A stretch of DNA of 64,000 bases from a phage. The notes beneath the pieces were generated by a model. It was not told the DNA's origin. It was given only the letters and a program-made list of their open reading frames with translations, and did no database searches. Below are positions 2,343-58,472 of the stretch, piece by piece; position 1 is the stretch's first letter, and each line of letters begins with the position of its first letter. Where the stretch lies: sequence record PQ724392.1; one strand, written 5' to 3'. The translations under genes were made by a program, and so were the position numbers.

Positions 2343-2350
2343 AATATACC

Positions 2351-3295: not shown

Positions 3296-3323
3296 ATGAA
3301 CCTCTGTTCAATTAGTTGACTCG

Positions 3324-3351
3324 ATTATATTAGCATAAAAATTTTAAAGCA
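3324..3351 (-). promoter_or_regulatory. candidate middle promoter for rnh
   Basis: minus strand TTGCTTTA (Mot box) - 12 nt - TAATAT(AAT); overlaps the late promoter of gene 34 on the other strand. Confidence 0.4.
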
Positions 3352-3352
3352 A

Positions 3353-3360
3353 TATAAATA
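3353..3360 (+). promoter_or_regulatory. late promoter (TATAAATA) for genes 34-35
   Basis: exact TATAAATA ~30 nt upstream of the gene 34 ATG. Confidence 0.65.
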
Positions 3361-3391
3361 CACATATACCAAATCAATAAGGATAAAGCAC

Positions 3392-9210: not shown

Positions 9211-12200
9211 ATGGCTACTTTAAAACAAATACAATTTAAAAGAAGTAAGGTTGCCGGCGTTCGTCCGGCGCCAACAGTTCTTGCTGAAGGTGAACTGGCT
9301 ATCAACCTGAAAGACCGCTTACTTTTTACTAAAGATGACACCGGCGCCATTATCGACCTTGGTTTTGCCAAAGGCGGTAATATTGATGGTAATGTTATTC
9401 ATAACGGTAATTACAATCAAACTGGTGATTATACTCTTAACGGTGTATTTACTCAAATTGGTGATTTCAATCTCAATGGCATTGCTCGTGTAACTCGTGA
9501 TATTATTGCGGCAGGTCAGATAATGACCCACGGTGGTGAACTTATTTCTAAGAGTGCCTCAACTTCTCACCTTCGTTTCTTTGATGGCAATGACCGTGAA
9601 CGTGGCATTATCTTTTCTCCTAATAATGCAGGGGCAACCAACCAAGTAGTTAATATTCGTGTACAAGATTATTCTACCGCAAGCGAAAGCACTTATGCAT
9701 TTTCAGGCGCCGGTGTATTTTCTTCTCCTGTAGTTTTTGGATGGAAATCTGTATCAACTCCCGTAATTTATACTAATAAAGTTATTACAAATGGTAAAGT
9801 TGCCGGCGATTATGATATCTATTCATTGGCCGATAATACCCCATTGGCAGAAAGTGAAACAGCTATTAACCATCTCCGTGTTATGCGAAATGCTGTAGGC
9901 GCGGGTATATTTCACGAAGTTAAAGATAATGACGGAATAACCTGGTATGCTGGAGATGGATTGGACGCTTATCTTTGGTCATTTACATGGTCAGGTGGAT
10001 TGAAAGCCGGTCATTCTATTTCCGTAGGCACCCCAGGTAACTCTAAAGGATATTCTGAATTAGGAAATGCTTCAATTGCTCTTGGCGATAATGACACCGG
10101 GCTAAAATGGCATCAGGATGGATATTTCCATACAGTAAACAACGGCACGAGAACTTTCCTGTACAGCCCAGCAGAAACCACCAGTCTTAGAAAAATGGTT
10201 ATGGGGTATTCTACTAACGGAACCGATTTAACTACTCCTCCTACTGAAAACTATGCTCTTGCTACTGTTGTTACTTACCATGATAATAACGCGTACGGTG
10301 ACGGTCAAACTCTTTTAGGGTATTATCAAGGCGGTAATTATCACCACTATTTCCGTGGTAAGGGCACTACAAACGTTAACACCGCTGGCGGTTTGTTAGT
10401 TACGCCTGGTAATATAGATGTTGTTGGTGGTTCGGTTAATATTGATGGTAGAAATAATGCTTCTACGCTGATGTTTAGAGGTAACACAACTGGTAGTAGT
10501 TCAGTTGATAATATGACTATCAGCGTTTGGGGTAATACCTTTACTACTGTCGATGGCGACCGTAAAAACGTAATGGAAATATCTGATGCCACCAGCTGGA
10601 TGCATTATATTCAGCGTAAGACTGATAATACCGTTGAGGCCGTATTAAATGGACAACAAACTATTAACGAAAATCTTGTTGTCAAAAAAGATATTTTAGT
10701 TGATAAGGCGGTCCACACCGCCGGCGAAATTACTACAAGTGCCGTTAATGGGCTCCGCATCTGGAACAACGATTATGGAGCCATTTTTAGACGCTCAGAA
10801 GGCAGTCTTCATATTATTCCTACTGCATTCGGTGAAGGCATGTCCGGCGATATTGGTCCACTTCGCCCGTTTAGCATGGCTTTAGATACTGGTAAAGTCA
10901 CTATTCCAGATTTACAATCAAGTTACAATACGTTCGCAGCAAACGGTTATATTAAATTTACTGGTCACGGAGCAGGCGCCGGCGGTTATGATATTCAATA
11001 TGCACAAGCAGCTCCTATTTTCCAAGAAATTGATGATGCAGCAGTAAGTAAATATTATCCTATTGTTAAGCAGAAATTCTTACAAGGAAAAGCTGTTTGG
11101 TCTTTAGGTACTGAAATTAATTCCGGGACTTTTGTTTTACACCATCTTAAAGAAGACGGGACCGGAGGTCATACCTCAAGATTTAATGCTGATGGTACAG
11201 TTAACTTCCCCGATAACGTGCAGGTTGGTGGTGGTGAAGCTACTATTGCTCGAAACGGTAATATCTGGTCCGATATTTGGAAAACGTTTACTTCAGCAGG
11301 CGATGTAACTAATATTCGCGATGCTATTGCCTCCCGTGTGGCCAAAGAAGGTGATACGATGACCGGCCGCTTAACTCTTAATGCAAACTCGGATGCTATT
11401 GTTATTAACAGTGCTGCAACCGAATCTGGTTATGTGAAAGGACAAAAAGCTGGTGTTGATAACTGGTATGTAGGCAATGGCGGCGCTGATAACGCCCTAT
11501 CGTTTTATAGTTTCCGAACTAATTCAGGCGTTAATATTCATAATAGTGGGGAAATTGCTTTAGCTCCTCAAGGGTCGGATACTTTTTATTTTAATAGGGA
11601 CCGTCTTTATATAAAGGGTTCACAATGGGCCGCACACCAGGCTGGCGATTGGGGAAACCAATGGAAGCAAGAAGCCCCTGTGTTTGTAGATTTTGGTAAT
11701 GTTGGTAATGATAGTTATTATCCGATTATCAAAGGAAAATCTGGTATTACTAACGAAGGATACGTATCCGGTGTAGATTTTGGTATGCGCCGCATCACAA
11801 ATACATGGGCGCAAGGTATTATTCGTGTAGGTAACCAGGAAAACGGTTCTGACCCGCAAGCTATCTATGAATTCCACTCTAATGGTACTTTTTATGCTCC
11901 GAGCTTACTTAAGAGCAACAGAGTATCGGCTGGCGGTGGTGACCCTGTATGGGGTGGACCGTGTATCGTTATAGGTGATAACGATACCGGTTTGCTCTGG
12001 GAAGCGGACGGTATTTTCAACGCATATGCAAATGGTCAAGGGGTGTTTAGTTTTAGAGCCGGACTTGCCCAGACATTTGGTAACGTTAACTTACACTGTA
12101 ATGCGGGTATGTATGTTCGTGATAACATTGATGTTAACGACGTTTATATTCGTTCTGATATTCGTTGTAAGTCGGAAATTAAGCTTATTAAGAATGCTCA

Positions 12201-12500: not shown

Positions 12501-13280
12501 ATGGCAGTAGTAGGAATTCCTGGCTGGATTGGGACATCAGCAGTGGCTGAAACAGGTCAACGTTGGATGACAGCAGCTTCTAGAGAATTGCGTCTTGGTA
12601 ACCCATCTTGGATGTCGCAATTTGCTGGTCGGTCCCGTGAGATTATTCACACACTTGGAGCTGACCATAACTTTAATGGACAATGGTTCCGCGACCGTTG
12701 TTTTGAAGCCGGCGGTGCTCCTATAGTGTTTAATATCACAGGCAACTTAGTATCATATACTAAAGATGTTCCGTTGTTCTTTATGTACGGTGATACCCCT
12801 AACGAATATGTTACTTTGAATATTCATGGTGGTGTTCATATGTGGGGCCGAGGTGGCAACGGTACAGTAAATGGAAGCCCAGGCACTAATGGTGGTGACG
12901 TAATCCAAAATGATATTGGTGGACGACTTCGCATTTGGAATTATGGTGTGATAGCCTCCGGTGGTGGTGGCGGCGGTGCCGCATCATTACAGAATAGTTG
13001 GCCTGCAAATGCTACAGCAGGTGGCGGTGGCGGCAGACCATTTGGTCTCGGCGGCGGTGGTGTTAATTGGCCAGGCGGCAATGCTAGTTATGATGGTCCA
13101 GGTGGCGGTGGTAATGCAAACCAATTTGGCGGTGGCAATGGCGGTGATGCTGGTGGCGCTGGTGGCGCTGGATGGGGTAATAACTTATCCAGGTCGGGTG
13201 GTGGTGCTCCTGGTAGAGCAGTATTCGGTTCCTCCCCATCATGGGGCGCGACAGGCACTATCTACGGCTCATGGTTATAG
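12501..13280 (+). CDS. 38: tail fibre adhesin gp38 (T2-type, glycine-rich motifs)
   Basis: 259-aa ORF immediately after gp37; conserved N-terminal half followed by runs of GGGGG separated by short variable segments, as in T2-type gp38 adhesins. Confidence 0.8.
12957..13215 (+). repeat. glycine-rich motif repeats in gp38 (GGN-codon tracts)
   Basis: at least six runs of ggtggcggtgg-type sequence encoding GGGG(G) blocks separated by short variable segments. Confidence 0.7.
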
Positions 13281-14555: not shown

Positions 14556-14834
14556 TTAGCTACCAGATTGTTCATGCAATTTCCTTAATTGATATTCAAG
14601 AGAACTGATAATTTCTTTATTAGTTGCAATATACATATCACGTAGGAAGGGTTTCAGACCTTCTCTAACTCTATACGTGTTATCACTAATATCCTTTATA
14701 TATTCATGGTCTAAAGCATCCCAAGCCGGCTGGTTAACATAAGTTCCCCAGTTATCTTCCATCATAGTGTTCAGACGTTTGATATGATTGATATGGGTTT
14801 CGATTGCATCAATCTGGAGTTGTTTAAGGTTCAT
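14556..14834 (-). CDS. arn: anti-restriction nuclease Arn-like protein
   Basis: 92-aa ORF at the T4 arn position (asiA-arn-...-motA); same length as T4 Arn and similar PAWDALD.EYI.D / KPFL.DMYIA.NK segments from memory. Confidence 0.65.
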   Translation of the reverse strand: MNLKQLQIDAIETHINHIKRLNTMMEDNWGTYVNQPAWDALDHEYIKDISDNTYRVREGLKPFLRDMYIATNKEIISSLEYQLRKLHEQSGS

Positions 14835-15445
14835 TAATAAAGGTCCTCTGAATAAAGTTCTTTTTCACTACCGCCACGTTCAATACGCACTTGATTTGCA
14901 TAAGTCGCAATAATCATTGCTTCTTCGCGGGTCCAGTAATTGCTGTACTGGTCAATGAATCCTTGATTATCACCACAAACATGGTCTGACACAAGTTTAT
15001 CACTTACTTGGTCAAGCACTTCTGCCATATCCTTGGAATAATGTCTGGCACCAGGAATAACCAGAGTCCCACCATCTTTTAACTTAAATCGGTTGGCGGC
15101 ACATACAATCCGTCGCTGATATTTTTCATTGTTATTCCAATGCGCAATCTGCCAACAGATTTCCGGGACTTCTTCCAGAATATCTTTTTCATCGCATGTG
15201 TATCCATGTGCTTTAAATTTTTCAGCGAGGCTTTTGGGGGTTTCACGCGATTCTGGTGCTGGTAACATTTCTAAACGAGTGATAAACGGATTCATTTCAC
15301 AATTACCTTCTTCATTATATTCGGTGTAATCACCGTATGCATGTAATTTAGCAGCGAGACTTTCAGGAGTCTCCCGAGAAAGAGCTTTATCTAACAAGGC
15401 CATACGGTCTTTAAAGGATAATGCTTTACCTTTTAATGGATTCAT
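14834..15445 (-). CDS. hypothetical protein with an internal tandem ~25-aa repeat
   Basis: 203-aa ORF; repeated segment [20 protein letters not shown] / [19 protein letters not shown]; no recognisable catalytic motif. Confidence 0.5.
15196..15393 (-). repeat. imperfect tandem duplication inside ORF 14834-15445
   Basis: two ~60-nt segments sharing cagcgag(g/a)ctt...(t/c)c(a/c)cg(c/a)ga and encoding the ESRETP.SLA.K..A.G.YT peptide repeat. Confidence 0.45.
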
Positions 15446-21581: not shown

Positions 21582-22175
21582 TCAGCTTGTAAACCGGTGA
21601 TAGGGGAATTTTTCTTCTGAACAAGAACGGAGGTACCAGCCATCCCCTTGTGACTTCTGCACAAGACCAGACTCAGGAACGAAAGCGCCAGGTCCAGCAA
21701 GGAATTTTGGTTTAAATTTATAACCTTTGATAGTCTCTTTTACATCGAACATAATCATAAGGTCAGCAAGCTTGTGCTGCATAAAAGGGCCAAGATTAAC
21801 TCCGTAACCGTGTGGGTAATCGCCATGGCTGCCAGTGTGCACGGATATCCATTTGGAACCGGACTGGTGAGTCTTGACTTCGATTCTTACCCCTTCCTTC
21901 GAAACTACATCAAATGCAAAGGAATAAGGATTATCGTAATCTTCATCGCCACCACACAAAAAGCCGGAGGTCCATTTAGCAATAGCTTGTTCAGCCATCG
22001 TAGCCACCATACATCTTTGCATGACTTGCTCACGGTCCTGACCTGGGTCTTTACGCAATGAATACCTGGCAGTGTCTACAATCTTTTGCAGGGATTCAGG
22101 GGTTAAGTCTTCTTTTGTATAAAGAAAGGAGGGCATCTTTTTCAGATGCTCCCATGTTTTACTCTTCTGAATCAT
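21582..22175 (-). CDS. hypothetical protein at the denB (endonuclease IV) position
   Basis: 197 aa from ATG with AGGA SD; lies upstream of rIIB where T4 has denB, but two extra ORFs intervene and sequence identity is unverified. Confidence 0.35.
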   Translation of the reverse strand: MIQKSKTWEHLKKMPSFLYTKEDLTPESLQKIVDTARYSLRKDPGQDREQVMQRCMVATMAEQAIAKWTSGFLCGGDEDYDNPYSFAFDVVSKEGVRIEVKTHQSGSKWISVHTGSHGDYPHGYGVNLGPFMQHKLADLMIMFDVKETIKGYKFKPKFLAGPGAFVPESGLVQKSQGDGWYLRSCSEEKFPYHRFTS

Positions 22176-22179
22176 AATG

Positions 22180-22500
22180 TCATCCTTTAAAATACATATC
22201 GGATTTTTCGACAATATCTAAAGAATTTTGCTCAGCTTGCTCTTGATAATCGCTGCCAATATAAACTTTGTCCACATGAACGACGCCATAATAAATTCTG
22301 GCACTTTCGGCTAGTGTAGAATGGTCCAGACTACGAAGTTCTTCTTTCGTTGCAAGAATGATGTCCCTCGCATATAACCGCCCAGTTGACTTTGTAGAAG
22401 CATAATGACAATCCACACAATAAACAATATCCGCAACATGATTACCATGCAACCGGATTTCGTTAATAGATTCATCGCCAACGTTCATATAGTTAATCAT
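22180..22500 (-). CDS. hypothetical protein
   Basis: 106-aa ORF containing CVDCHY; co-oriented. Confidence 0.45.
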   Translation of the reverse strand: MINYMNVGDESINEIRLHGNHVADIVYCVDCHYASTKSTGRLYARDIILATKEELRSLDHSTLAESARIYYGVVHVDKVYIGSDYQEQAEQNSLDIVEKSDMYFKG

Positions 22501-28570: not shown

Positions 28571-28590
28571 AAAAGGCCCGAAGGCCTTTT
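28571..28590 (-). terminator. terminator-like tetraloop hairpin
   Basis: AAAAGGCC-CGAA-GGCCTTTT palindrome overlapping the stop codon of ORF 28589-28990. Confidence 0.55.
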
Positions 28591-28990
28591 ATTTGAATCG
28601 AAGCTGCTCTAACATTTTAATAGCTTGTAGGCGCCCGGCTTCAGTTTTAACCGTAATAATAACATCGCCACCGGTAACAACGATATCCTCTTTTGATTCC
28701 TGTTCGGTTATTTCAGAATCACATTCCTTTGGGGTTTCTTCAAAATATTTAAATTCATCACCAAAAATAAGACCGGTTCCATTACGACTATGGAAAGAAA
28801 ATCCAGTTCCATCGATAGTACTAAATTCCGTCACAACATTTGCTTCCATCTTGGTGACTGAAAACTCTTTGGTAGTAATCAAATCAATGATAGAGGTTCC
28901 TTGCTGGTTCAAAATGCAACCGGGCATACCGACATGTTTAAGGAAGCCATCTAAATCTTTAATGCAATAACTCTTTCCAATTTTAAACAT
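28589..28990 (-). CDS. hypothetical protein
   Basis: 133 aa from internal ATG with GAGGA SD (track ORF 28589-29167 would overlap the upstream gene). Confidence 0.45.
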   Translation of the reverse strand: MFKIGKSYCIKDLDGFLKHVGMPGCILNQQGTSIIDLITTKEFSVTKMEANVVTEFSTIDGTGFSFHSRNGTGLIFGDEFKYFEETPKECDSEITEQESKEDIVVTGGDVIITVKTEAGRLQAIKMLEQLRFK

Positions 28991-28997
28991 AATATCC

Positions 28998-29258
28998 TCA
29001 TTCAAATCGGATGGTTGAATTCTTGAACAACAAACCAGAACAAACAGTTCCTTCAACTTTCTTACCAGTTGGACCCACGGCCGTAAAGCCTGTATGTTGG
29101 AAATCATCTTTACCGCAAGAGAACCAATTATATCCGGTGATTTGGATTTGTTCATAGCCGTTTGCATCTAATACACGAATGGCATTATCTGCATCAGTAC
29201 AACCAGCCAATGAAACCGCCAGCACCAGCGCTGCAATAGAACGATTAACGTATTTCAT
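28998..29258 (-). CDS. putative lipoprotein
   Basis: 86-aa ORF; N-terminus MKYVNRSIAALVLAVSLAGC = signal peptide plus lipobox L-A-G-C. Confidence 0.5.
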   Translation of the reverse strand: MKYVNRSIAALVLAVSLAGCTDADNAIRVLDANGYEQIQITGYNWFSCGKDDFQHTGFTAVGPTGKKVEGTVCSGLLFKNSTIRFE

Positions 29259-38667: not shown

Positions 38668-39186
38668 TTAATAACCCCGGTCCTGACGAGCAAAGTTCTC
38701 AGCGTTTTTCAGGTAATACAATTTAAAGATTTCTTCTGCAGTCAGTCCAAGGCCATGGAACATGTTCAGAACAAAGTGCAGGATATCAATCATCTCAAAT
38801 TTAATTTCGAGCTGGTCTTCGGGAGACAACTCATCAATACGACGATTACGGAATTCAGCATGTTGGACTTTCCATGGTTTCCATACACTAGATGCAGCTT
38901 TCTCGCCATTAGACATACCACCGAGAGAAGTCAGAAGTTCACGGAATTCGTCGTCGACATAATCTTTCTGGTTACGAAGCCATGCAACAACATCACCTGC
39001 AGTAGTCAATTCATCTGGATGTGAGTTATATTCTGGTTTTTCAGTAGCCAGACGAACTTGCAATGATTTCTGCATATCAAGCATAATCTGCAGCGGGTCA
39101 GTACCTTTTGTAATCGCATTGTCATAAGCTTCTTCAGCTTTATCAACACCAGCAATCAGTTGGGAACACTCGTTAAAATGAGCCAT
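38668..39186 (-). CDS. 56: dCTP pyrophosphatase gp56 (MazG-like)
   Basis: 172 aa from ATG with AAGGAAA SD; MAHFNEC..L..GVDKA, DPLQ.MLDMQ, ETAGDVV.W.R.QKD..DDEFRELLTSLG, SPEDQLEIKFE..D..HFVLNMF.GLG..AEEIFKLYYLKN.ENFARQD.GY match recalled T4 gp56. Confidence 0.9.
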   Translation of the reverse strand: MAHFNECSQLIAGVDKAEEAYDNAITKGTDPLQIMLDMQKSLQVRLATEKPEYNSHPDELTTAGDVVAWLRNQKDYVDDEFRELLTSLGGMSNGEKAASSVWKPWKVQHAEFRNRRIDELSPEDQLEIKFEMIDILHFVLNMFHGLGLTAEEIFKLYYLKNAENFARQDRGY

Positions 39187-39271
39187 TATATTTTTCCTTA
39201 TCAATTCATGTTATTTTGTATGTTAATTATATCATATTGGGTTGAAGCATAAATACACGGAAGGAGGATAT

Positions 39272-39469
39272 ATGCTCAAACTATCTAGTCTAATTCAAGC
39301 CATCAAAGGCAGTCGTAAGCGAACGATTCTGGTCCTTTCGATACTCTGTTTAGTTCTACTCTGGAACTTCGTTGTTGCCCCTGTTGCATTGACACATGGT
39401 GTTATATTACCAGTCATTGCACTCGAATCGGTTGTAGATGTTTCACTGGCATTAATCGGCCTTATATAG
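39272..39469 (+). CDS. small hydrophobic protein on the opposite strand (65 aa)
   Basis: ATG preceded by AAGGAGG; two predicted TM segments (ILVLSILCLVLLWNFVVAPVAL, VILPVIALESVVDVSLALIGLI); terminator hairpin downstream; only plus-strand gene among minus-strand early genes. Confidence 0.4.
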   Translation: MLKLSSLIQAIKGSRKRTILVLSILCLVLLWNFVVAPVALTHGVILPVIALESVVDVSLALIGLI

Positions 39470-39528
39470 GTGGAACTATGTGAACATTATTCTATCAGAT
39501 TTGGAAATTAACCAGTAAGAAAGACAAG

Positions 39529-39565
39529 AAACATCATGGGCTAAAAAGTCCATGATGTTTTTCTG
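39529..39565. terminator. bidirectional rho-independent terminator between gene 61 and the plus-strand small ORF
   Basis: 11-bp stem AAACATCATGG / CCATGATGTTT with 10-nt loop, T-runs on both strands. Confidence 0.65.
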
Positions 39566-39587
39566 TGGAACTTACCGGAATCCCTTC

Positions 39588-40616
39588 CTAAACTTTTGCG
39601 TACTTCGAAAGTCGCATTCTCGCCATCAACCCTTGAGCAACGTTATCGGCCATATATGATTCGATTTGTTCAGGGGTTGCGCCCTCCGATTTAACCATCT
39701 CATTTATGTCTTTCGTATGCCATGGTGCATTGTCCCAGAACATAACGGCTTCACCCGCTTCAACGAGCTTCTTCATACGTTTAATCGTATCCGGATGTCT
39801 TGGCTCGTTGTCCATTACCCATACTCGGGTTTCAGCATAAGGAACGGCTTCCAATGCTAATGTTCCACCAGTTATCGCAATGCTGTTAGGGATAAACAAA
39901 CTATCAATCGGACCTTCCATTACCCACACGCGCTTGCGCTCATCAATCTTGTCTACGCCATAGACTTTGGAAGCTTCTGGGTGAGCTTTGATTGTGATAT
40001 ATTTTTGTGGTGCATCTTTGCGAAGAGCTCGTCCTTGGAAAGATTCGATTTCTTTTTTGCCGTTGAAGATAGGAATAACCAAGCGTGGTTCATTCGTTTC
40101 ATTCTTATACGTCCCAGGATTAACGGAGTTAACTAATGCAGGCCATTTGTTTGTAAACCATAACCGGTTCCAAACATTGCTCGGAATACACCGACTTTTT
40201 ACATACTTAACTATCGGATGCGCTTCTGGTAAAGTATCGATTCTTTCGCAAAAAGCAAGCTCTTCAATAACCGGAGTTTTTTCTTGTTCTTTCGGAGCTT
40301 CTGCAACTTCATTACGTTGTCGACCGAAGGCGTTTTCCTTGTACTTCTCAACCATATATTCCCGGTGCAAATCCGGCTCAAACTCTTTTATGTATTTGCT
40401 TATATGCGTGGAGTAGTCACAGTTAAAACATTTCACGTAAACCGCACCATCAGATGGATTGGTATACGCCCAGAATCGAGCCTTGTGTGAATCTTTCTGG
40501 GAGTCACCACAAACCTTACAACGACAGTTTGCCTTAAATGTGCTCCCGGTGACTTCTCTGTAACGTGGTTGATACGATAAAGCTTTGACTGCAAATTCTC
40601 TATCAATATATGACAT
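39588..40616 (-). CDS. 61: DNA primase gp61
   Basis: 342-aa ORF; N-terminal zinc ribbon (CRCKVCGDS....C.NCDYS) and TOPRIM core; same length as T4 gp61. Confidence 0.9.
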   Translation of the reverse strand: MSYIDREFAVKALSYQPRYREVTGSTFKANCRCKVCGDSQKDSHKARFWAYTNPSDGAVYVKCFNCDYSTHISKYIKEFEPDLHREYMVEKYKENAFGRQRNEVAEAPKEQEKTPVIEELAFCERIDTLPEAHPIVKYVKSRCIPSNVWNRLWFTNKWPALVNSVNPGTYKNETNEPRLVIPIFNGKKEIESFQGRALRKDAPQKYITIKAHPEASKVYGVDKIDERKRVWVMEGPIDSLFIPNSIAITGGTLALEAVPYAETRVWVMDNEPRHPDTIKRMKKLVEAGEAVMFWDNAPWHTKDINEMVKSEGATPEQIESYMADNVAQGLMARMRLSKYAKV

Positions 40617-44567: not shown

Positions 44568-44896
44568 CTCTTTTTCATTTTAATCTTATCAATTTCATCT
44601 TGTATTTGCATTGTAACACACTTTTCTACATGCACTGCAAGCTCCGCTTTGCGGTCTTCAGAAGGGGTGCCGAAATCAACTGAAACTTTTCCCGATGGTT
44701 CAATTTTAATTCCGGTTACGTACACAATGTGATTGGACCCATCAGGGAGTGATAACAGAATTTCCTGCCGTACAGTTCCCATGGATTGCCGGATAATCTC
44801 CAAACTTTTTTCGTAGTAAGGTACAGAAGGAGCCTTAGCTCCCTCCGCATCTTTCTCGAAATTATCTAAATCAGATAAATCGATATCATTCATCAA
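44552..44896 (-). CDS. 40: head vertex assembly chaperone gp40 (by position)
   Basis: 114-aa ORF between uvsX and 41 as in T4; C-terminal basic/hydrophobic tail KMKKRWWKW; sequence identity not verifiable. Confidence 0.55.
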   Translation of the reverse strand: MMNDIDLSDLDNFEKDAEGAKAPSVPYYEKSLEIIRQSMGTVRQEILLSLPDGSNHIVYVTGIKIEPSGKVSVDFGTPSEDRKAELAVHVEKCVTMQIQDEIDKIKMKKRWWKW

Positions 44897-46064
44897 GGTC
44901 TTCCATCATATCTAAATCGTTTTCGATATCTGCCGCAGATGGTTTTGCCTTACCTTCAGGGGCAGAGTATTTTTCAACCTTGGAGGCAATAAGCGCATCA
45001 ACTTCGGCGTCAACAACAGCATTGCTATCGATTGCACCCAGCTGGTAATGGCGTTTGATTGCATCACGGAAAGGTTCGTGCTTAAACAATGGGCCCCAGA
45101 ATTCGGTGCAGTTAGTATCTTTTGCACGCCATGATTTTTCTTCGCGGACCATTTCACCGGTCTCAACATCAAGATATTCACGGTTATACCAACCAACTTT
45201 CGGTTTCACCACAAATCCGATTTCCATTGCCATATCAAGCAGGCCAGAATACGGGTCAATACCCCCATCGAATTTTACATCAATGAAGAATTTACTTTTC
45301 TCTTTGACCATACGAGATTTTTCGGCGTTCAGAACAAATTGGAAACCTTCAAGTTCTTTACCAGTTTCTTTAATCTGGCGTTTGCCGATAATGAATACGG
45401 TGTCCGCAGAATACATAACACCTGTACCACCGGTCATAACGGTTTTGCTATACATCTCAATCGTCTCGATTGTATGGTTAACCGCGACACAAGGAATATC
45501 CTTGATACTAAAATATGGGGTAACAATACGGAACAGAGATTTCAGGGATTTAGCACGAGTCATATCGCCAACGACTTTTTCGTTCATCGCATCTTCTGTT
45601 TCTTTTTTCGACGCCATGTTACCGATTGAGTCAATAAAGATAATGACTTTTTCACCGCGCTCAATTGCTTCAAGCTGGTTAACCATATCAACTTTCAATT
45701 GTTCAACCGACTGGATTGGTGTGTGGATAACACGCTCCGGGTCTACTTTCATTGCACGCAGATAGGCTTCTGTGATACCAAATTCTGAATCATAGAACAA
45801 ACAGATTGCTTCGGGGTATTTGTTCATATATGCAGAGACCATCGTTAAACCCATATTGGATTTAAAGTGTTTTGACGGACCAGCAAAAATAGTCAAACCT
45901 GACTGCATACCACCATCTAGTGCACCGCTGATTGCAATGTTCAGCATCGGGATTTTTGTACGAACTACATCTTTATCATTAAAAAACTTGGACTTAGTAA
46001 GAGTCGCAGTCATTTTGGATGTAGAAGCTTTAATCAAACGGGATTTCAAATCTGCAATAGACAT
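44886..46064 (-). CDS. uvsX: recombinase UvsX (RecA/Rad51 family)
   Basis: 392-aa ORF; Walker A-like GPSKHFKS, Walker B IIFIDSIG; N-terminal ADLKSRLIKAST; length as T4 UvsX. Confidence 0.9.
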   Translation of the reverse strand: MSIADLKSRLIKASTSKMTATLTKSKFFNDKDVVRTKIPMLNIAISGALDGGMQSGLTIFAGPSKHFKSNMGLTMVSAYMNKYPEAICLFYDSEFGITEAYLRAMKVDPERVIHTPIQSVEQLKVDMVNQLEAIERGEKVIIFIDSIGNMASKKETEDAMNEKVVGDMTRAKSLKSLFRIVTPYFSIKDIPCVAVNHTIETIEMYSKTVMTGGTGVMYSADTVFIIGKRQIKETGKELEGFQFVLNAEKSRMVKEKSKFFIDVKFDGGIDPYSGLLDMAMEIGFVVKPKVGWYNREYLDVETGEMVREEKSWRAKDTNCTEFWGPLFKHEPFRDAIKRHYQLGAIDSNAVVDAEVDALIASKVEKYSAPEGKAKPSAADIENDLDMMEDLDE

Positions 46065-46406
46065 TCATTTTTTCCATAGGCACCATTATATTTTTCTCAC
46101 AGGTTTAAGATAGGATAATTATATCACTGTATTTTTAGAGCAATTAACGATTGAATCCACGATTAATTGCACGTTCAACAATCTTCCGGGTCTGACGTTT
46201 GTCCCACCAGTACATAAAACCAATACCAAATGCAGACAACAACCACAGACTAATCAATAGCATACCAATCATAATATTTTTCTCGCAGTTCAGAGTAATT
46301 TAGTAAACGTTTCCACGTTTCCAGTTTTCTTCAGCCAAATGCTTATTACGCTTTTCTAATAGCAGCAAACCAATTACTGTTCCAACAATCAGAAGTAATA
46401 ATAGCA

Positions 46407-46910
46407 TCAGTTAATACCTTGGCGTGCTTTCTCTTTAGCTACACATTTATTAATATAGCTCAGACGGTTTTGAGCAGAACGCTGATACATATCGCGATAC
46501 TCATTGGCTTTTGGAGAACCCGTCTCCGCTGCCTGATAAGCTTCTGCACGCATGATGTTTATCTGCATATTGATATATGACATGCAGACCTGTGAAATCT
46601 GGTTAACAGTATCCAGGTCATTTTGGCGCTTGGTTTCTGCTTCCAGTTTAGCAATGATTTCGTCATGCTTCGCAGCTTGTTCGCGTTTGTACTCAATTTC
46701 ACGTTGAGCATATTTCGCGCAGTTATTTCCACATTGATTGTTGTCGCGTTTGTAGATAAGTCCAGTACCACCTTTGAAATCAAAGGAACCATTATGCACC
46801 TGACGGTCTGCAGCAATTCGCGCTTTACCAATCTCATTGGCATTAACAACATCACCCTGGTAAGCACAACCAGATAGCAGCATAACAGCTGCGATAGCTA
46901 ACTTTTTCAT
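46407..46910 (-). CDS. putative lipoprotein with coiled-coil region
   Basis: 167 aa from ATG with GAGGAAAA SD; MKKLAIAAVMLLSGC = signal peptide plus lipobox; lies where T4 has beta-gt/42. Confidence 0.5.
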   Translation of the reverse strand: MKKLAIAAVMLLSGCAYQGDVVNANEIGKARIAADRQVHNGSFDFKGGTGLIYKRDNNQCGNNCAKYAQREIEYKREQAAKHDEIIAKLEAETKRQNDLDTVNQISQVCMSYINMQINIMRAEAYQAAETGSPKANEYRDMYQRSAQNRLSYINKCVAKEKARQGIN

Positions 46911-47060
46911 TGTATTTTCCTCAATTAAAACATTCATAACGGGCTTGGAGTCCCAAAAATATCCAACCCAAAATTAAAGTTGGAATCATATGCGGAGTCA
47001 TTATTGCCCAATAGATTGACATACTAAAAAATGCAATCAGTACAATAATTGTAATTATCT

Positions 47061-47303
47061 TCATTTGGTTTCCTTGATGATAATTAACTGTGCGTTTGAT
47101 TTACGTTCAGCAACGAGTGCCCAAATAAACGCAATAAACCACCCAACCATTGTCCAACCTAACAGAAGGTTAACAAAGAAGATTCCGCAATTACTTTTGG
47201 TTCCACGCAGTAGCGCGATAATCCACGGTAGAAAATAGGTCAGTGCAGCCAGGAAGAAAGAACCAGCACCAAGAACAACAGTACCTGCAATTAATGTTTC
47301 CAT
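47061..47303 (-). CDS. imm: superinfection immunity protein Imm-like
   Basis: 80-aa two-TM protein; YFLPWIIALLRG....FFVNLLLGWTMVGWFIAFIWALV resembles the Imm-family motif as recalled; adjacent to gene 43 as in T4. Confidence 0.6.
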   Translation of the reverse strand: METLIAGTVVLGAGSFFLAALTYFLPWIIALLRGTKSNCGIFFVNLLLGWTMVGWFIAFIWALVAERKSNAQLIIIKETK

Positions 47304-47343
47304 TTTAATATCCTTAAGTTAATCATCAGTAATTGATGGAGTA

Positions 47344-47372
47344 ATCATACGGCAATCCTTTGCCGTTGTAAA
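47344..47372 (-). promoter_or_regulatory. early-type promoter upstream of imm
   Basis: minus strand GTTTACA - 17 nt - TATGAT; overlaps a hairpin (ACGGCA/TGCCGT) after the gene 43 stop. Confidence 0.45.
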
Positions 47373-47375
47373 CAC

Positions 47376-50090
47376 TTAAAAGTCAAACATATCAAAAAGA
47401 GATGCTTTTTTCTCGTAATCAACCTTAGCTGCTTCAGAGAACCCTGTCAATGGCTTAACAAAAGTCTTCTGGAACAGCGTGTTGTAGTCCATCCACTGCA
47501 AGACTTGGTCACGAATTTCAATCGGGAGTTCAATCCCTGATGGCCATGCAATCACGGTTTCGCCAAACGGGTTACCAACTTTAAGAGGAAGCACATACAC
47601 CTTTTCCCCTTCCATGATTTGTGGAACAGTCTTCAGCCCTTTAGTTGCACGCATATATGCAAGCACACCTTTGATATGAGCCGGGCACTTAAATCCAGGG
47701 AAACCGCCCTCATTATATTTCTGGATGTTGTTAACCGATGATACACCCGCGATGGTCATGTAGTTAAGCTCATTAAATTCCTTATTGAATTCCTTGAAGT
47801 ATGTCTGCAGAGATTCTTCACCTTCTTGCAGCATACGGCGGATACATTCTTTCAGAGCTTTCTGACATGCTTTTGGTGTACTCGACTTTTGAGTTTCCAG
47901 GCCCATGATTTTCAGTTTCGGAACAGCATATCGTGTGCCTTCCATATCGTACACGTTCAGAGCATAACGCTTCTTCGCCGTCCAGAATCCACCAACACCT
48001 TTAGAACCAAGTGGAGGACATGCAATCGCTTCACGGTCCATAAACATAAGGTGCTGTTTGTTGTTCATGTATTCAGCCAGCTCACGGAAAGCTTTATCGA
48101 TTGCTGGTTCCAGACGGTCTTTCGCGAACTTGTCCATGAAGTCAACCAGGTGGTTTGTATCGCGGAATTTAGATTCACCACCAACCTTTTTAATCAGGTT
48201 ATCGCACTGGATATAAATGGAGTCAGTATCACCATAGAATACATATGTTTCACCACTTGTACCGCAAACACTATCAAAATATTCGTTAACTTTACGCTCA
48301 ATCCACTGCAATGCAAGTTGTCCGAAAGATGTAATCGCGGTTGCATTTCGCAGGTCAAAGTAACGGAACCAGATATTACCCAGAGCGCCATAACAACTGT
48401 TGATAAGCAGTTTACGGTTAATCTGTGCGGTCATGCCTGCAACTTCTTCCATTTGTGCTTTGTACAACATACCATTCAGAACTGTTTGATTCAGACCATG
48501 CAAGGTTGTTTTCATATTGTCATCAAAGTCATAACGATAATCAACTTCAGGCTCGGTTGTACCAGTTCCTGGATTACGCAGGGCTTCCTTAATCAGTTCA
48601 CCATTACGTTGAGCCGCAAGCATATAACCTTTATGCTCTTTACGCTGATTAAACACCTTGGTGACTTCTGTCGGAATAATACCCGCAACATCTTTAAAAT
48701 ACATCATACCGTTTGGAGCACAACTAAATGTATCAGATGGACGGTCAGCAGTTCCTGCAATGTATTCATACATCGGCGCTGGTGTAAATGACCCGGCAAT
48801 CGTTTCTGGACTAATGTTAATCTGTCGGATGATGCTCGGATACAGAGATGTTAAATCACAGCTCATAACATATTTGTATGCGTTCGGAATCGGTTCCTTA
48901 ACAAATGCACCCGGGAACGATTGACGAACATGCGATTTGGTTTCCGGAATGACTTTATTTTGAGTCTTCAGGCTGTTAAAGATAATCGCATCCCAAGTTT
49001 TGATTGGGCTGAATACAGACTGAATCTGCATTTTTGCGTAATAACCCATTGACTGGCTAAGGTTAATAAACTGACGCTTACGGTCAATCTGTACAACACG
49101 ATAAACATCGATGATGTTATAAGAAATATACCGTTGGTGATTTGATTCGCGCAGTTTAGAAATCGGGCCATCATACGGGAGTTTACCAACACCCAGCTCA
49201 GATTCCGCAACATAATCCAACGAATAAGATGGCTGGTTTGTGAAGCTGAACTTTTTATACAGGTCCAGATAATCCAGAACAGAGATACCCAGAATCTGAA
49301 TGATTTCTTGTTCTTCACCGAATCCGTTGTTAATGACCTTAACTTTTGTACGACGATGTGGACTCAGACGTTTTGCCGTAGCTTCACCAAACACATTTTT
49401 AAGGCGGTTGTAGATATATGGAATATCAAACTTCTCGATGTTCCAACCAGTTAACATAACCGGAGTTTTCTCGTTCCAGAATACCAAATACTGCTGGAGC
49501 ATTTCTTCTTCTGAATCGAAAGCCATATAAACAATTTTTTCCAGGATTTCTTCAGGGACTTCATCGCCGCCATCTTCTTGCAGCTTAGCAGCAATATCAA
49601 TAGACCATTGCTCCACAGTGGCGTATGGTGAGCTCAAAAGGTCAAAGACATAGAATTTATCGTCTACCGAATCATAGTGCGTCAGGGCATCAATAGGGTG
49701 ACGTGCTTCAGACGGCTCAGGGAACCCATCAGGAGATGTCACCTCGATATCGAAGTTAGCCACACGGATTTTACTTGAATCGTATTTGATTTCGTGCGGG
49801 TAACGGTCGGACAAGTATGCGAGTTTAAAGTCATCCATACCCATAGCTTCGAGACCCATTTCATTCATTCGCTTCATCCACTGGGATGCATCACGCATGG
49901 AATCGAATTCTTTTTTCACACAACCTTTATTATAGATGTCTGTATACTTTGCGGCCTGGTCTTCGCGGGCGTGCATAAACAAGCATGGAGCATAAGGGAT
50001 TTCACGAACACGTTCATGACCGTTCTTGTCAATGTATCGTTCGAGCAGATTGTCACCGATTTGTTCGATAGTTAAATAAAATTCTTGCAT
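47376..50090 (-). CDS. 43: DNA polymerase gp43 (family B)
   Basis: 904-aa ORF; exonuclease motifs (FDIEV), polymerase motifs (SLYPSII, KLLINSCYGALG, YGDTDS); length as T4 gp43. Confidence 0.95.
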   Translation of the reverse strand: MQEFYLTIEQIGDNLLERYIDKNGHERVREIPYAPCLFMHAREDQAAKYTDIYNKGCVKKEFDSMRDASQWMKRMNEMGLEAMGMDDFKLAYLSDRYPHEIKYDSSKIRVANFDIEVTSPDGFPEPSEARHPIDALTHYDSVDDKFYVFDLLSSPYATVEQWSIDIAAKLQEDGGDEVPEEILEKIVYMAFDSEEEMLQQYLVFWNEKTPVMLTGWNIEKFDIPYIYNRLKNVFGEATAKRLSPHRRTKVKVINNGFGEEQEIIQILGISVLDYLDLYKKFSFTNQPSYSLDYVAESELGVGKLPYDGPISKLRESNHQRYISYNIIDVYRVVQIDRKRQFINLSQSMGYYAKMQIQSVFSPIKTWDAIIFNSLKTQNKVIPETKSHVRQSFPGAFVKEPIPNAYKYVMSCDLTSLYPSIIRQINISPETIAGSFTPAPMYEYIAGTADRPSDTFSCAPNGMMYFKDVAGIIPTEVTKVFNQRKEHKGYMLAAQRNGELIKEALRNPGTGTTEPEVDYRYDFDDNMKTTLHGLNQTVLNGMLYKAQMEEVAGMTAQINRKLLINSCYGALGNIWFRYFDLRNATAITSFGQLALQWIERKVNEYFDSVCGTSGETYVFYGDTDSIYIQCDNLIKKVGGESKFRDTNHLVDFMDKFAKDRLEPAIDKAFRELAEYMNNKQHLMFMDREAIACPPLGSKGVGGFWTAKKRYALNVYDMEGTRYAVPKLKIMGLETQKSSTPKACQKALKECIRRMLQEGEESLQTYFKEFNKEFNELNYMTIAGVSSVNNIQKYNEGGFPGFKCPAHIKGVLAYMRATKGLKTVPQIMEGEKVYVLPLKVGNPFGETVIAWPSGIELPIEIRDQVLQWMDYNTLFQKTFVKPLTGFSEAAKVDYEKKASLFDMFDF

Positions 50091-55420: not shown

Positions 55421-55658
55421 CCTTGATGCATGATTCAGCCATATGAATTAATGTTTCTGGAGTATCATCTACCATTACATTAAAGCTAAATTCCACAGCC
55501 CAATCGGTGACTACATAGACTTTGATAAGTTGACCGGTTTCCCGGTCAGTGATAGCTTCAAACCAATACTTAATAGTATTCGGTTGATTATCGTCGTCAA
55601 CAACATCACATTCGCGGATATGCTCAAGTCCCGCTTCATTAAAATCATAAAGTCTCAT
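55395..55658 (-). CDS. hypothetical protein
   Basis: 87-aa ORF between 47 and 46. Confidence 0.4.
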   Translation of the reverse strand: MRLYDFNEAGLEHIRECDVVDDDNQPNTIKYWFEAITDRETGQLIKVYVVTDWAVEFSFNVMVDDTPETLIHMAESCIKDAYNDENV

Positions 55659-56674
55659 GGTTGTACCTCAAGATATAATTTGTTGGCCAATGCTTTAAGA
55701 GCTTTTGATTCTTTCTCATTGGTGTCAGGTAATGCATCAATATATTCTGCCATCATATCAGTTAAGCGTTTTATGTCTAACTCTTCTTCGGAGTCAGTCG
55801 TATCAACACTGTTATCAACCTTATTGACAACACGCAATTCATGTACACGCTTTTCTAATTCAGATTCGAACTTGGTCAGGTCTTTATCGACTTTTTCTAC
55901 AATAACACGGACTGATAGGTCTTTGAAGTCGTCGTAGTTAATAGTTTCGTTTGGATAGAAAATCTTCCGATGCCAGGTGGTTTCATTCGGAATAAATTTC
56001 ATCTCTTCGGTTTCTGTATCAAATTCCCAGAATCCGCGCGGGTCATTCTCATCACCTGCTGTTAATGTCCATGGTGTCCCGATGTACTTAACGTTTGCAG
56101 CTTCTGAAATGGTATGGAAGTGCCCAGACCAAACTTGCTTGTACTTCTTAAGGAAATCGGGCTCAAGCCCGTGGGATTTCAATCCTTTATAGAAATAAAA
56201 CCCGGTTAATTCCCAGTGACCAATGCAATATTCAGCACCAGAAGTTTTGATGTGTTGATGAATGTCAGTCGCGTTCTCGTCACACATCCATGGAATCATA
56301 TCAATCTGACAGCCGTCAAAATCAACAGTCGTTGGCTTGTCGTAGATTTTAACATGGTCATACTTATTCAGGAGTTCGGTGATAGCATTAGGATGAATCT
56401 TATTCTTCAGATTCATGTCATGGTTCCCGACTATCGTGTGCATAGTAATTCCTGCTTCACGAAGGAGTTCCATAATCTCGCGGCTGAATTCCATTGTCTT
56501 ATGCGTTACAGCCTTACGGACGTCAAAAATATCACCATATTGAATCCAGACTTTAATTCCATTTGCTTTGGAATATGCAATCGCCTGTAAAATACCATCC
56601 CGTTGAATGTTTTGAGCCCATGGGTCGTCAGCTTTGACACCCAAGTGCCAATCACCTAAATTTAAAATTTTCAT
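55655..56674 (-). CDS. 47: recombination nuclease subunit gp47 (Mre11/SbcD-like phosphoesterase)
   Basis: 339 aa from ATG at 56674 (track start is TTG); MKILNLGDWHLG, QYGDIFD, GNHD, GHWE, SGHFH metallophosphoesterase motifs. Confidence 0.9.
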   Translation of the reverse strand: MKILNLGDWHLGVKADDPWAQNIQRDGILQAIAYSKANGIKVWIQYGDIFDVRKAVTHKTMEFSREIMELLREAGITMHTIVGNHDMNLKNKIHPNAITELLNKYDHVKIYDKPTTVDFDGCQIDMIPWMCDENATDIHQHIKTSGAEYCIGHWELTGFYFYKGLKSHGLEPDFLKKYKQVWSGHFHTISEAANVKYIGTPWTLTAGDENDPRGFWEFDTETEEMKFIPNETTWHRKIFYPNETINYDDFKDLSVRVIVEKVDKDLTKFESELEKRVHELRVVNKVDNSVDTTDSEEELDIKRLTDMMAEYIDALPDTNEKESKALKALANKLYLEVQP

Positions 56675-56857
56675 AAGCCAAGCGCCGTTATCGCAGTGCA
56701 AAATAAAATTATTGAAATGAACCCGTCAGGAGTAGAAAAGAATCCTATCCAACAAGCTCGTGTGAATGTGTAGAATGCCATGAATAACACAACATATCCT
56801 AAAAATAATTCCATATAATCTCCTCAGTTGGTTCATTTTATCATCCCGAATATAAAG

Positions 56858-56882
56858 CAAAAAAGGAAGCACTAGGCTTCCT
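56858..56882 (-). terminator. rho-independent terminator
   Basis: minus strand GGAAGC-CTAGT-GCTTCC followed by TTTTTTGCTTT. Confidence 0.6.
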
Positions 56883-57200
56883 TTCCAATTAATACACCAT
56901 ACAGAGGTTCATGAGAAGACCTGAACTTGATAGGCTTATATTTAATAGTACCTTCATTTTCTGCTTTAATACGAGCGGCTTCAAATTGAAGTATCATCTC
57001 ATTTTTGTCAGATTTAATCTTATCAAAATCCGTCGAATTCGTCATTCATATGACCTCTTAAAAATCAGGATGTTCGTCTTGAAATATATTACCCAATCGT
57101 TTTAATTCGTCGGAAGTAAGAATATCTACATCATCAATAGTCATAATACACCTCTTAAACTTTTTCGTATTCGTCATTCATTAACCGGCAGTCCATGTTA

Positions 57201-57401
57201 TCATCGTTGCCACCACTTCTTAAGTTGATGTGAATCCACCCAAACCTTGGCTACAGGCTCAATCCGAAAAATTTCATCGGAATACTGCCCAACCATTTTA
57301 TATTCGGTTTCAGTCTGCTTGATACAGATATTACCATATGAGCGAAGTCTGAAAGCGGCTCCAATAAGAAGCCGTTTAAAAGGTTTATTTACTAATGCCA
57401 T
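57201..57401 (-). CDS. hypothetical protein
   Basis: 66-aa ORF between 55 and 47. Confidence 0.4.
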   Translation of the reverse strand: MALVNKPFKRLLIGAAFRLRSYGNICIKQTETEYKMVGQYSDEIFRIEPVAKVWVDSHQLKKWWQR

Positions 57402-57696
57402 TTACGATTTCCCAAATTTGTTTGCGAGTAGTTTCCCACATCAACTTAATCAGGTCTTCCGTAACTGGTTGGCGGTAAATTCCACGCAGTTTAACTAAAG
57501 CATATTTGTATGCTTCAAAATTGTTTTCCAGCACTGCCCCTTGAGCATGCTTATTCAGTCGTGCAATTTCACGAGCATTCTTTTTCAGAATCTTTGCTGC
57601 TTGACTCTGTGCTTCGAGCGCGTTCGCTTCTTCGAGACGTTCCTGTGCTTCTTCAATCTGCTTATCGGTCAGTTGAGAAATATCTGGAGCTTGCAT
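57385..57696 (-). CDS. hypothetical coiled-coil protein
   Basis: 103-aa ORF between 55 and 47. Confidence 0.4.
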   Translation of the reverse strand: MQAPDISQLTDKQIEEAQERLEEANALEAQSQAAKILKKNAREIARLNKHAQGAVLENNFEAYKYALVKLRGIYRQPVTEDLIKLMWETTRKQIWEIVNGISK

Positions 57697-57697
57697 A

Positions 57698-57949
57698 TTA
57701 ATCCTTGGGAGTTAACTCAATTGTAAAATATAGATTAGCATTATCCACATGATAACGGTAATCAACGTTATTATCCGGCGAAGTAAATTCCAGATTCCGG
57801 ACGTTTAAAGGGTCGATATCAATTGGAAGACCTTTTATGTCTCGCAGATAAAGTTTAATGAAATATGGGAGCGCAGTAAAGTCTTCCTCGATTTTATCTA
57901 AAAAATCGGTAATATCAAATTGATGTTCCATATAAAAAATCCAAATCAC
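57698..57949 (-). CDS. hypothetical protein
   Basis: 83-aa ORF just downstream of gene 55. Confidence 0.4.
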
Positions 57950-58472
57950 CTTCTTTATCTTTGGCGCTCTTATCAGACCCTGGCGCTTTAACTAAAGAGG
58001 ATTCGTACTGTGTCATTTTGTCATAGATGTCCTGGATAAATGTTTCATCAGCCAGAGCCACCATATCGTCGTCACGTGAATCATACACGTTATGAACGAA
58101 GTAGCTATATTTCTTTGCCATTTCTTTACGTTCTTTTTTGATACGCTGAACGAAAGCATTGAAGCAAGCCATTGTTATGTAAGCATGTGGATTATCGTAT
58201 TTTGTTTCGTCGAAGTTATGAAGACCTTTTATTGCGGCCTCAATTCCGTCTGCAATCATTTCTTGCTTCCAGGATTGGGTATATCCGGAGAAGTTGAAAC
58301 GTTTGCTAAGACCTTCGGCTATAAGCATAATTGCCAGACCAATAACATCGTTCTGGCGAATAATTTTATTCGGGTCGGTGTTCGCATTCAGCTTCTGTTT
58401 CCACTCCGAAATAGCTTTCAGAAGCTCTTTATTATTTACATAGTTATTCTTGGTTAATTTAATTTCGTTCAT
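57915..58472 (-). CDS. 55: late-transcription sigma factor gp55
   Basis: 185-aa ORF; [127 protein letters not shown] match recalled T4 gp55. Confidence 0.9.

Follow-up and report, generated by a model that had tools for sequence, protein, structure and literature searches.

A thymidylate synthase with a predicted switch to dCMP in T4-like coliphages that lack the known cytosine-modification genes

The stretch of DNA analysed here (the window; 64,000 nucleotides of sequence record PQ724392.1) comes from a Gaprivervirus, a T4-like coliphage, and the phages MN01, TH40 and VR20 match it at 96–98% identity. Between uvsX and gene 43, we found five open reading frames (ORFs):

44886–46064, minus strand: uvsX recombinase, 392-aa ORF, collinear with VR20 uvsX; left border of the interval
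46144–46272, minus strand: hydrophobic 42-aa ORF, no match in the PHROG search
46300–46407, minus strand: hydrophobic 35-aa ORF
46407–46937, minus strand: lipoprotein, 176 aa, lipobox LLSGC; phrog_1754 (5.8e-47)
46921–47064, minus strand: hydrophobic membrane ORF, 47 aa; phrog_3610 (1.2e-26)
47061–47303, minus strand: imm, superinfection immunity; Pfam PF14373 (Imm_superinfect, 7.6e-18), 51% identity to T4 Imm
47376–50090, minus strand: gene 43 DNA polymerase, 904-aa ORF, collinear with VR20 gp43; right border of the interval

The interval thus holds just Imm, a lipoprotein and tiny membrane ORFs, as originally predicted. The lipoprotein, whose real start is probably the MKKL at position 46910, is a homolog of gp047 of the Dhakavirus VR5 (52% identity). 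By position it is the counterpart of T4 imm.1, with similarity to imm.1 in the N-terminal part only. The region around the 35-aa ORF (46290–46409) does not align to VR20 and is present in TH40. When the interval was scanned for promoters and terminators, a good sigma-70-like promoter was found upstream of imm (47372–47344), whereas all other hits were no better than chance.

To look for genes of cytosine modification, we searched the window and the complete genomes of VR20 and TH40 with T4 gp42, beta-gt, alpha-gt and Dam (tblastn and phmmer), and found no homolog in any of them. An HMM of the thymidylate synthase family also detects no dCMP hydroxymethylase in these three sequences. The T4-type modification loci are thus empty, as had been claimed, and the two complete relatives carry neither gene 42 nor glucosyltransferases in the rest of their genomes. 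Permissive E-values (tblastn and phmmer) gave only chance matches for remnants of these genes in the window. The second T4 modification locus lies between genes 47 and 55:

55655–56701, minus strand: gene 47, collinear with VR20 gp47
56671–56814, minus strand: 47.1 homolog, 78% identity to T4 47.1
56872–57045, minus strand: a-gt.2 homolog, 52% identity to T4 a-gt.2
57201–57401, minus strand: a-gt.3 homolog, 45% identity to T4 a-gt.3
57385–57696, minus strand: a-gt.4 homolog (DUF2654), 43% identity to T4 a-gt.4; Pfam PF10849 (9e-25)
57698–57949, minus strand: a-gt.5 homolog, 39% identity to T4 a-gt.5
57915–58472, minus strand: gene 55, late sigma factor, collinear with VR20 gp55

This interval had been described as lacking alpha-gt and holding only small unknown ORFs. 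The absence is confirmed; the ORFs, however, are homologs of T4 47.1 and a-gt.2 to a-gt.5. The gap between 47.1 and a-gt.2, where the T4 map has alpha-gt and mobB, is only 57 nt, which leaves no room for alpha-gt.

In the sister genera, a different cassette is found. The arabinosyl-5-hydroxycytosine cassette of RB69, Mosigvirus and Dhakavirus (PMC13326640) fills the region between uvsX and imm in VR5, which is empty here. The VR5 gp047 homolog and imm, which flank the cassette, are common to VR5 and the window. The glycosyltransferase-like gene, the D169N thymidylate synthase homolog, the kinase, the isomerase and the 557-aa protein are missing, and none of VR5 gp042 to gp046 has a homolog in the window, in VR20 or in TH40. 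We conclude that the cytosine-modification cassette found between uvsX and imm in the sister genera has been lost entirely from Gaprivervirus, and that the T4 alpha-gt was never present in this genus. Empty modification loci are an already known trait of the genus: that these phages lack gene 42 but keep 56, alc, denA and denB is a published puzzle (2021, PMC8056088; 2025, PMC12115623). The prediction that restriction evasion differs from that of T4 stands, as a trait of the genus and not a peculiarity of the window.

Three further ORFs of the window bear on the puzzle:

38668–39204, minus strand: gene 56, dCTPase-dUTPase; homology over 38671–39186, Pfam dUTPase_2
21582–22214, minus strand: denB, endonuclease IV homolog; homology over 21630–22151, 45.5% identity to T4 DenB (E 1e-50)
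14556–14834, minus strand: arn.2 homolog, 92 aa, 39% identity to T4 arn.2 (E 4e-18)

A dCTPase is retained, as predicted, with 68% identity to T4 gp56 across its full length (171 aa). In addition to gene 56 and denB, these phages have kept cd, gene 1, alc and denA. The prediction of a retained Arn-like protein did not hold. Searches with T4 Arn (tblastn and phmmer) gave no hit, either in the window or in the relatives, and the PHROG search found no Arn family among the ORFs between asiA and motA. The arn.2 homolog, which is neighboured by arn.3 and arn.4 and has no match among solved structures at E<=10, is most likely the ORF that was mistaken for arn. As Arn is absent, the argument for unglucosylated hydroxymethylcytosine (hmC) that was built on it fails. 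A Pfam scan of 20 window ORFs returned only DUFs; no domain of a methyltransferase, of ThyX or of a glycosyltransferase appeared.

In these phages, the thymidylate synthase family is represented by td alone. This gene is located next to frd, about 3 kb beyond the window, so that our evidence comes from the td genes of relatives. Profile searches for the family detected one ORF per genome in VR20 and TH40, which is td; no second or divergent member was found in these two genomes (phmmer and two profile HMMs, with VR5 gp043 as positive control). In all 11 relatives examined (seven isolates and four metagenome contigs), Td has Asp at the position of E. coli ThyA residue 177. The seven Gaprivervirus isolates, which form two subclades that are 86% identical, all have L143/D169/D177; for these seven, Cys146 and the whole alignment of the active site were inspected as well. 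The four contigs encode a gp32 identical to that of the window and have Leu143 and Asp177; they are distinct genomes, which share 90–97% identity with the window where they align to it (best 96–97%). The td of the window phage itself presumably encodes Asp177 as well.

At residues 143/169/177, E. coli ThyA, T4 Td (1TIS) and the Td proteins of Dhakavirus and Mosigvirus have L/D/N, whereas T4 gp42 has D/D/D and VR5 gp043, which is of the 5-hydroxy-dCMP type, has E/N/D. The catalytic residues of the Gaprivervirus Td are unchanged, including Cys146, and the residues of reductive methylation (Leu143, E58, W80, Y94 and H147) are kept. Furthermore, a DHFR gene is present (frd), which overlaps td by 4 nt and is translationally coupled to it. 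Asp177 is encoded by both GAC and GAT, and td has a dN/dS of 0.04–0.18 with dS up to 0.95, which indicates that the residue is maintained by selection. We compared position 177 in the 120 clusters closest to Td from a collection of 5.8 billion proteins. Asn was present in 116 of them; the four clusters with Asp were all at >=86% identity. In IMG/VR, the motif ends in Asp in three contigs (VR20, VR25 and VR26) and in Asn in at least 120. These comparisons indicate that, among the closest sequences, the change is specific to the Gaprivervirus clade.

Beyond this clade, we observed the same residue in two Acinetobacter phages. According to PMC8056088, ZZ1 and 133 lack known modification enzymes and have kept DenB, Alc and 56, although Petrov et al. 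2010 credit phage 133 with a gene 42 allele (PMC2993671). The Td of both phages has L/D/D, whereas that of the Lazarusvirus DP45 has Asn. From rIIA to gene 44, ZZ1 contains no thymidylate-synthase-family ORF. Judged by sequence, ZZ1 and 133 thus appear to be an independent replicate of the pairing between missing enzymes and Asp177. Asp177 in the only td of the relatives, and its recurrence in ZZ1 and 133, are the new findings here. In the literature searched, we found no nucleoside analysis of a Gaprivervirus and no earlier proposal that these phages have 5-methylcytosine or N177D; subscription journals may hold such a proposal.

Experiments cited in PMC8670742 and PMC13326640 showed that the N177D mutant of the E. 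coli enzyme and the N229D mutant of the L. casei enzyme prefer dCMP and produce 5-methyl-dCMP. Leu143 has been linked to products that carry a methyl group and not a hydroxymethyl group (PMC13326640). We thus predict that N177D switched the substrate of Td from dUMP to dCMP, which would make it a dCMP methylase; the natural enzyme could also be dual-specific. Our main reading, to which we assign a probability of about 0.6, is that cytosine is still fully replaced in Gaprivervirus by another route, in which Td methylates dCMP and the DNA contains 5-methylcytosine. The 5-methylcytosine product is predicted from one specificity residue and from correlations.

The pathway would run as follows. The gp56 encoded in the window would convert dCTP and dCDP to dCMP, from which Td with Asp177 would make 5-methyl-dCMP through ordinary reductive methylation, while DHFR would recycle the folate. 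The gp1 dNMP kinase and the host NDP kinase would then produce 5-methyl-dCTP for incorporation by gp43. Thymidylate (dTMP) would presumably be obtained from 5-methyl-dCMP through the phage dCMP deaminase, by residual activity of Td on dUMP or from host ThyA. DenB (in the window), DenA and Alc would act selectively on the cytosine DNA of the host. Consistent with modified DNA, restriction analysis found that the cytosines of the Gaprivervirus VR7 are modified and not glycosylated (PMC6326788, Suppl. Fig. S4). Together with the N177D change in the lone td of the relatives, this supports the earlier suggestion that another route, encoded elsewhere, modifies cytosine.

The strongest alternative, though an unlikely one, is that an enzyme outside the thymidylate synthase family, hidden among the hypothetical ORFs, makes a new cytosine derivative, and that the change in Td is incidental or otherwise used. 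The literature itself proposes an unidentified protein or base (PMC8056088, PMC12115623), and a block of Gaprivervirus ORFs lacks counterparts in T4, for instance VR20 gp127 (228 aa, without a Pfam match) and gp128 (DUF7275 and DUF7277). However, the 10 largest unassigned VR20 proteins contain only DUFs and no nucleotide-modifying domain in a Pfam scan, and the known pre-replicative C5 modifications of pyrimidines all use thymidylate synthase homologs (PMC13326640). Purifying selection moreover conserves Asp177, which is found again in ZZ1 and 133; the change is hard to call incidental, since it should cripple dTMP synthesis.

It is quite improbable that the Asp177 Td makes 5-hydroxymethyl-dCMP or has a dual function, so that the DNA would contain unglucosylated hmC, the other option of the original prediction. 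Asp177 is indeed common to Td and T4 gp42, and the non-glycosylated cytosines of VR7 would fit. Yet the two complete relatives have no gene 42 homolog, the residues retained around the Td active site are those of true thymidylate synthases, where gp42 has D143 and T147, and frd is still coupled to td. In addition, the test that included T4 beta-glucosyltransferase scored VR7 as merely "modified", apart from the "hydroxymethylated" T4147 (PMC6326788, Suppl. Fig. S4).

That the DNA contains ordinary cytosine, with gp56 used chiefly as a dUTPase while Alc, DenA and DenB have acquired other specificities by drift, as in Krischvirus or Pseudotevenvirus, is very improbable: T4 relatives of that type with unmodified DNA also have 56 and denA (PMC12115623, Table 4) and DenB is just 45% identical to that of T4, but the VR7 analysis points to modified cytosines, the distribution of Alc and DenB otherwise equals that of gene 42 (PMC2993671, Table 4), and an Asp177 thymidylate synthase would make little sense in normal pyrimidine metabolism.

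Methylation of dCMP by Td offers a concrete and cheaply testable answer to which base Gaprivervirus uses and which enzyme makes it. If true, it would settle the question of the base left open in the literature, and the T4 family would gain members with 5-methylcytosine genomes. It would also be a natural case of the classic N177D specificity switch, in a rewired pyrimidine pathway where thymidylate synthase no longer makes thymidylate. T4-like coliphages with full 5-methylcytosine DNA would bear on sensitivity to McrBC, McrA, Mrr, BREX and CRISPR, and on the sequencing, engineering, phage-therapy rating and transduction risk of these phages. Speaking against the reading, McrBC, McrA and Mrr should attack DNA in which all cytosine is 5-methylcytosine, yet the listed host of the phage vB_EcoM_RZ is K-12 MG1655, and the searches gave no Arn homolog. 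The reading would thus call for another anti-restriction function, a further defence against methyl-directed restriction.

Extended to ZZ1 (Zedzedvirus) and 133, the reading becomes more tentative, at a little under even odds: in two lineages at least, and possibly in three, an N177D Td may have replaced the gene-42-type enzyme as a dCMP methylase, giving 5-methylcytosine genomes and thymidylate by deamination of 5-methyl-dCMP. One enzyme would then provide the methyl group of both pyrimidines.

In its chemistry, the proposed route resembles that of the Xanthomonas phage XP12, in which dCMP is methylated before replication and 5-methylcytosine replaces C completely. A further likeness may be that thymine derives from the deamination of a methylated cytosine nucleotide, a step reportedly described for XP12 by Wang and Ehrlich in 1982. 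XP12 is, however, an unrelated siphovirus, whereas here a point-changed T4-type Td ortholog, 65–69% identical to true Td, would act amid gp56, gp1, Alc, DenA and DenB. With the T4 gp42 system, the route would share the exclusion of dCTP by gp56, the modification of dCMP by a thymidylate-synthase-fold enzyme with Asp177 and the attack on cytosine DNA by DenA, DenB and Alc. In contrast to T4, gp42, the glucosyltransferases and Arn are absent. As Td keeps Leu143 and His147, where gp42 has Asp and Thr, its product should be a methyl group that offers no acceptor for a sugar. Td also differs from the thymidylate synthase homolog of the arabinosyl cassette, which has N169 instead of D169. The engineered N177D and N229D enzymes carry the identical single change, again in an active site that is otherwise canonical. 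Unlike these mutants, the Gaprivervirus change is natural and fixed in the clade, where A179G, A182G, F149L and further clade-specific substitutions occur alongside it.

The interval between uvsX and gene 43 contains five ORFs, all on the minus strand:

44886-46064, minus strand: uvsX, one border of the interval
uvsX-43 interval, minus strand: two tiny hydrophobic ORFs
46407-46937, minus strand: lipoprotein of 176 aa, homolog of VR5 gp047 (52% identity)
uvsX-43 interval, minus strand: membrane ORF of 47 aa
47061-47303, minus strand: imm
47376-50090, minus strand: gene 43, the other border

In T4, this interval carries segA, beta-gt, 42, imm and imm.1, whereas in VR5, of the sister genus Dhakavirus, it is occupied by a cassette of five genes, after which come gp047 and imm. 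Besides proteins of 297 aa and 557 aa, the cassette encodes a thymidylate synthase homolog (232 aa), a kinase and an isomerase. We found no homologs of these five genes in the window or in the complete genomes of the relatives VR20 and TH40. As T4 and VR5 have their cytosine-modification genes here, we conclude that uvsX-43 is the exact site of such genes in relatives and that it is cleanly empty in the window. The VR5 cassette sits between uvsX and gp047 (1990-6164 of the VR5 sequence). In the window, a hydrophobic ORF of 35 aa lies in 46290-46409, immediately downstream of the gene for the lipoprotein; it is present in TH40, while VR20 is unaligned there.

Searches with T4 gp42 (query sequence checked against PDB 1B49 before use), beta-gt, alpha-gt and Dam gave no match in the window or in the two complete relatives. 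Thus, the original prediction that uvsX-43 lacks beta-gt and gene 42 and holds only Imm, a lipoprotein and tiny membrane ORFs is confirmed, and the absence of gene 42 and glucosyltransferases extends beyond the window to the complete VR20 and TH40 genomes. The 47-55 interval was correctly described as lacking alpha-gt, with just 57 nt at the position of T4 alpha-gt and mobB; its ORFs, however, are not unknown, since they are homologs of T4 47.1, a-gt.2, a-gt.3, a-gt.4 and a-gt.5. At the T4 dam position, between genes 56 and 61, the window has about 380 nt (39204-39588) without a Dam homolog; this gap contains a 75-aa plus-strand ORF (39242-39469), and a plus-strand hypothetical gene is annotated at this position in VR20.

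The gp56 dCTPase is retained as predicted (68% identity to T4), and denB is present with 45.5% identity to T4. The Arn-like protein that had also been called as retained is not borne out: T4 Arn as a query had no match in the window, VR20 or TH40. The candidate, a 92-aa ORF (14556-14834) equal in length to Arn, is a homolog of T4 arn.2 and can be ruled out as Arn; no solved structure matched it, and its sole PHROG match is a family of unknown function. The earlier argument based on Arn therefore falls. The arn.2 homolog is followed by arn.3 and then arn.4. The arn.3 homolog (14834-15445, minus strand) has 80% identity to T4 arn.3 over 152 aa; its ORF has about 50 extra codons upstream (203 aa compared to 152 in T4 and 160 in VR20).

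The window belongs to the genus Gaprivervirus. A stretch of about 6 kb around the uvsX-43 locus has 96-98% identity to 33 phage records, all 33 of which share its architecture, and every match that was fetched (MN01, TH40, RZ, VR20, VR7, SP18 and others) is classified as Gaprivervirus. Over its full length, the window has 95-96% identity to TH40. Gaprivervirus has been reported to lack an hmC-forming enzyme, yet to keep the dCTPase, denA, denB and alc, and two papers conclude from this that these phages must have a protein or a base not yet described (PMC8056088, PMC12115623). Furthermore, the DNA of VR7, a member of the genus, is reported to have modified cytosines and to be non-glycosylated; in the same BREX panel, which covered treatment with T4 beta-glucosyltransferase, the DNA of T4147 scored as hydroxymethylated (PMC6326788). 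The empty loci are thus a trait already published for the genus, and the question is by which route cytosine is modified.

A thymidylate-synthase-family profile detected exactly one ORF each in VR20 and TH40, which is td, the phage thymidylate synthase gene. In the relatives' genomes td adjoins frd, about 3 kb past the left end of the window. We aligned Td with thymidylate synthases of known structure, among them T4 Td (PDB 1TIS). In VR20 Td, the motif GLPFNIASY is changed to GLPFDIGSY, which corresponds to N177D in E. coli ThyA numbering, whereas all other active-site residues (E58, W80, Y94, L143, C146, H147, R166, D169, H207 and Y209) are kept. MN01, VR7, SP18, CJ20, TH40 and Yersinia phage P8 show the identical pattern. 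Four metagenome contigs that encode exactly the same gp32 as the window likewise have Asp177 and Leu143; in Dhakavirus, Mosigvirus, T4 and E. coli, the Td residue is Asn177.

Position 177 is the established determinant of pyrimidine specificity. Leu143 has been associated with a methyl product, Asp143 or Glu143 with a hydroxymethyl product, and D169N with 5-hydroxy-dCMP synthases (PMC13326640).

Residues at positions 143, 169 and 177 of thymidylate synthase family proteins
True dTMP synthases: L, D, N
T4 gp42: D, D, D
VR5 gp043: E, N, D
Gaprivervirus Td: L, D, D

The signature of the relatives' Td predicts a dCMP methylase. The VR5 thymidylate synthase homolog has the signature of 5-hydroxy-dCMP synthases, and this cassette fits the report that VR5 DNA is glycosylated.

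Several observations suggest that Asp177 is functional. Both GAC and GAT are used as codons, and strong purifying selection acts on td (dN/dS 0.04-0.18), although dS between subclades reaches 0.95. The occurrence of Asp177 is clade-restricted: of the 120 clusters nearest to Td in a collection of 5.8 billion protein sequences, 4 have Asp and 116 have Asn, and the four are the only ones at >=86% identity. In IMG/VR, the motif has the terminal Asp in three contigs (VR20, VR25 and VR26) compared to Asn in at least 120.

In the proposed pathway, gp56 would remove dCTP and Td(Asp177) would methylate dCMP, with the folate recycled by DHFR. gp1 and host NDP kinase would yield 5-methyl-dCTP for incorporation by gp43, and host cytosine DNA would be the target of DenA, DenB and Alc. 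dTMP could come from dCMP deaminase (Cd) acting on 5-methyl-dCMP, from residual Td activity or from host ThyA. The genes for this presumed chemistry are retained. Against it, DNA with full 5-methylcytosine should be a target of McrBC, McrA and Mrr; one genus member has a K-12 strain recorded as its host, and Arn was not found. The original interpretation is thus partly supported: of the two options offered, cytosine modification by a route encoded elsewhere is supported by Td Asp177 in the relatives and the modified cytosines reported for VR7, and plain hmC is unlikely. The empty loci were already known; the proposed explanation by Td and 5-methylcytosine appears to be new within the searchable literature and is open to direct test.

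Two further phages, the Acinetobacter phages ZZ1 and 133, are reported to show the same puzzle, with no known enzyme for cytosine modification (PMC8056088). Their Td also has Leu143, Asp169 and Asp177 (PFDIASY) and is only about 44-60% identical to the other Td compared; Td of Lazarusvirus DP45 has Asn177. Between rIIA and gene 44 of ZZ1 no thymidylate-synthase-family ORF was found, while the VR5 positive control was detected. A gene 42 allele has been listed for phage 133 (Petrov et al. 2010, PMC2993671), which conflicts with PMC8056088. Judged from these Td sequences, ZZ1 and 133 are an independent replicate of the Gaprivervirus pattern.

Lastly, the window keeps the T4 gene order, from gene 32 (162-1073) to nrdD: 32, tail-fibre genes, t, asiA, motA, 52, ndd, denB, rIIB/rIIA and 39, then dexA, dda, modA/B, soc, 56, 61, 41, 40, uvsX, 43, 45, 46, 47, 55 and nrdD. 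At 9466-10740 and 12501-13280, the distal part of gene 37 diverges from the closest relatives (identity of only about 79%, or a gap in megablast), and gene 38 encodes the long T2-type adhesin (259 aa); this is the usual host-range mosaic. Between genes 39 and 39.1, about 400 nt (28589-28996) are unaligned to VR20 or TH40. The minus-strand ORF at 28589-29167 (192 aa, without Pfam match), which overlaps the 39.1 homolog in a different frame, may be an inserted gene.
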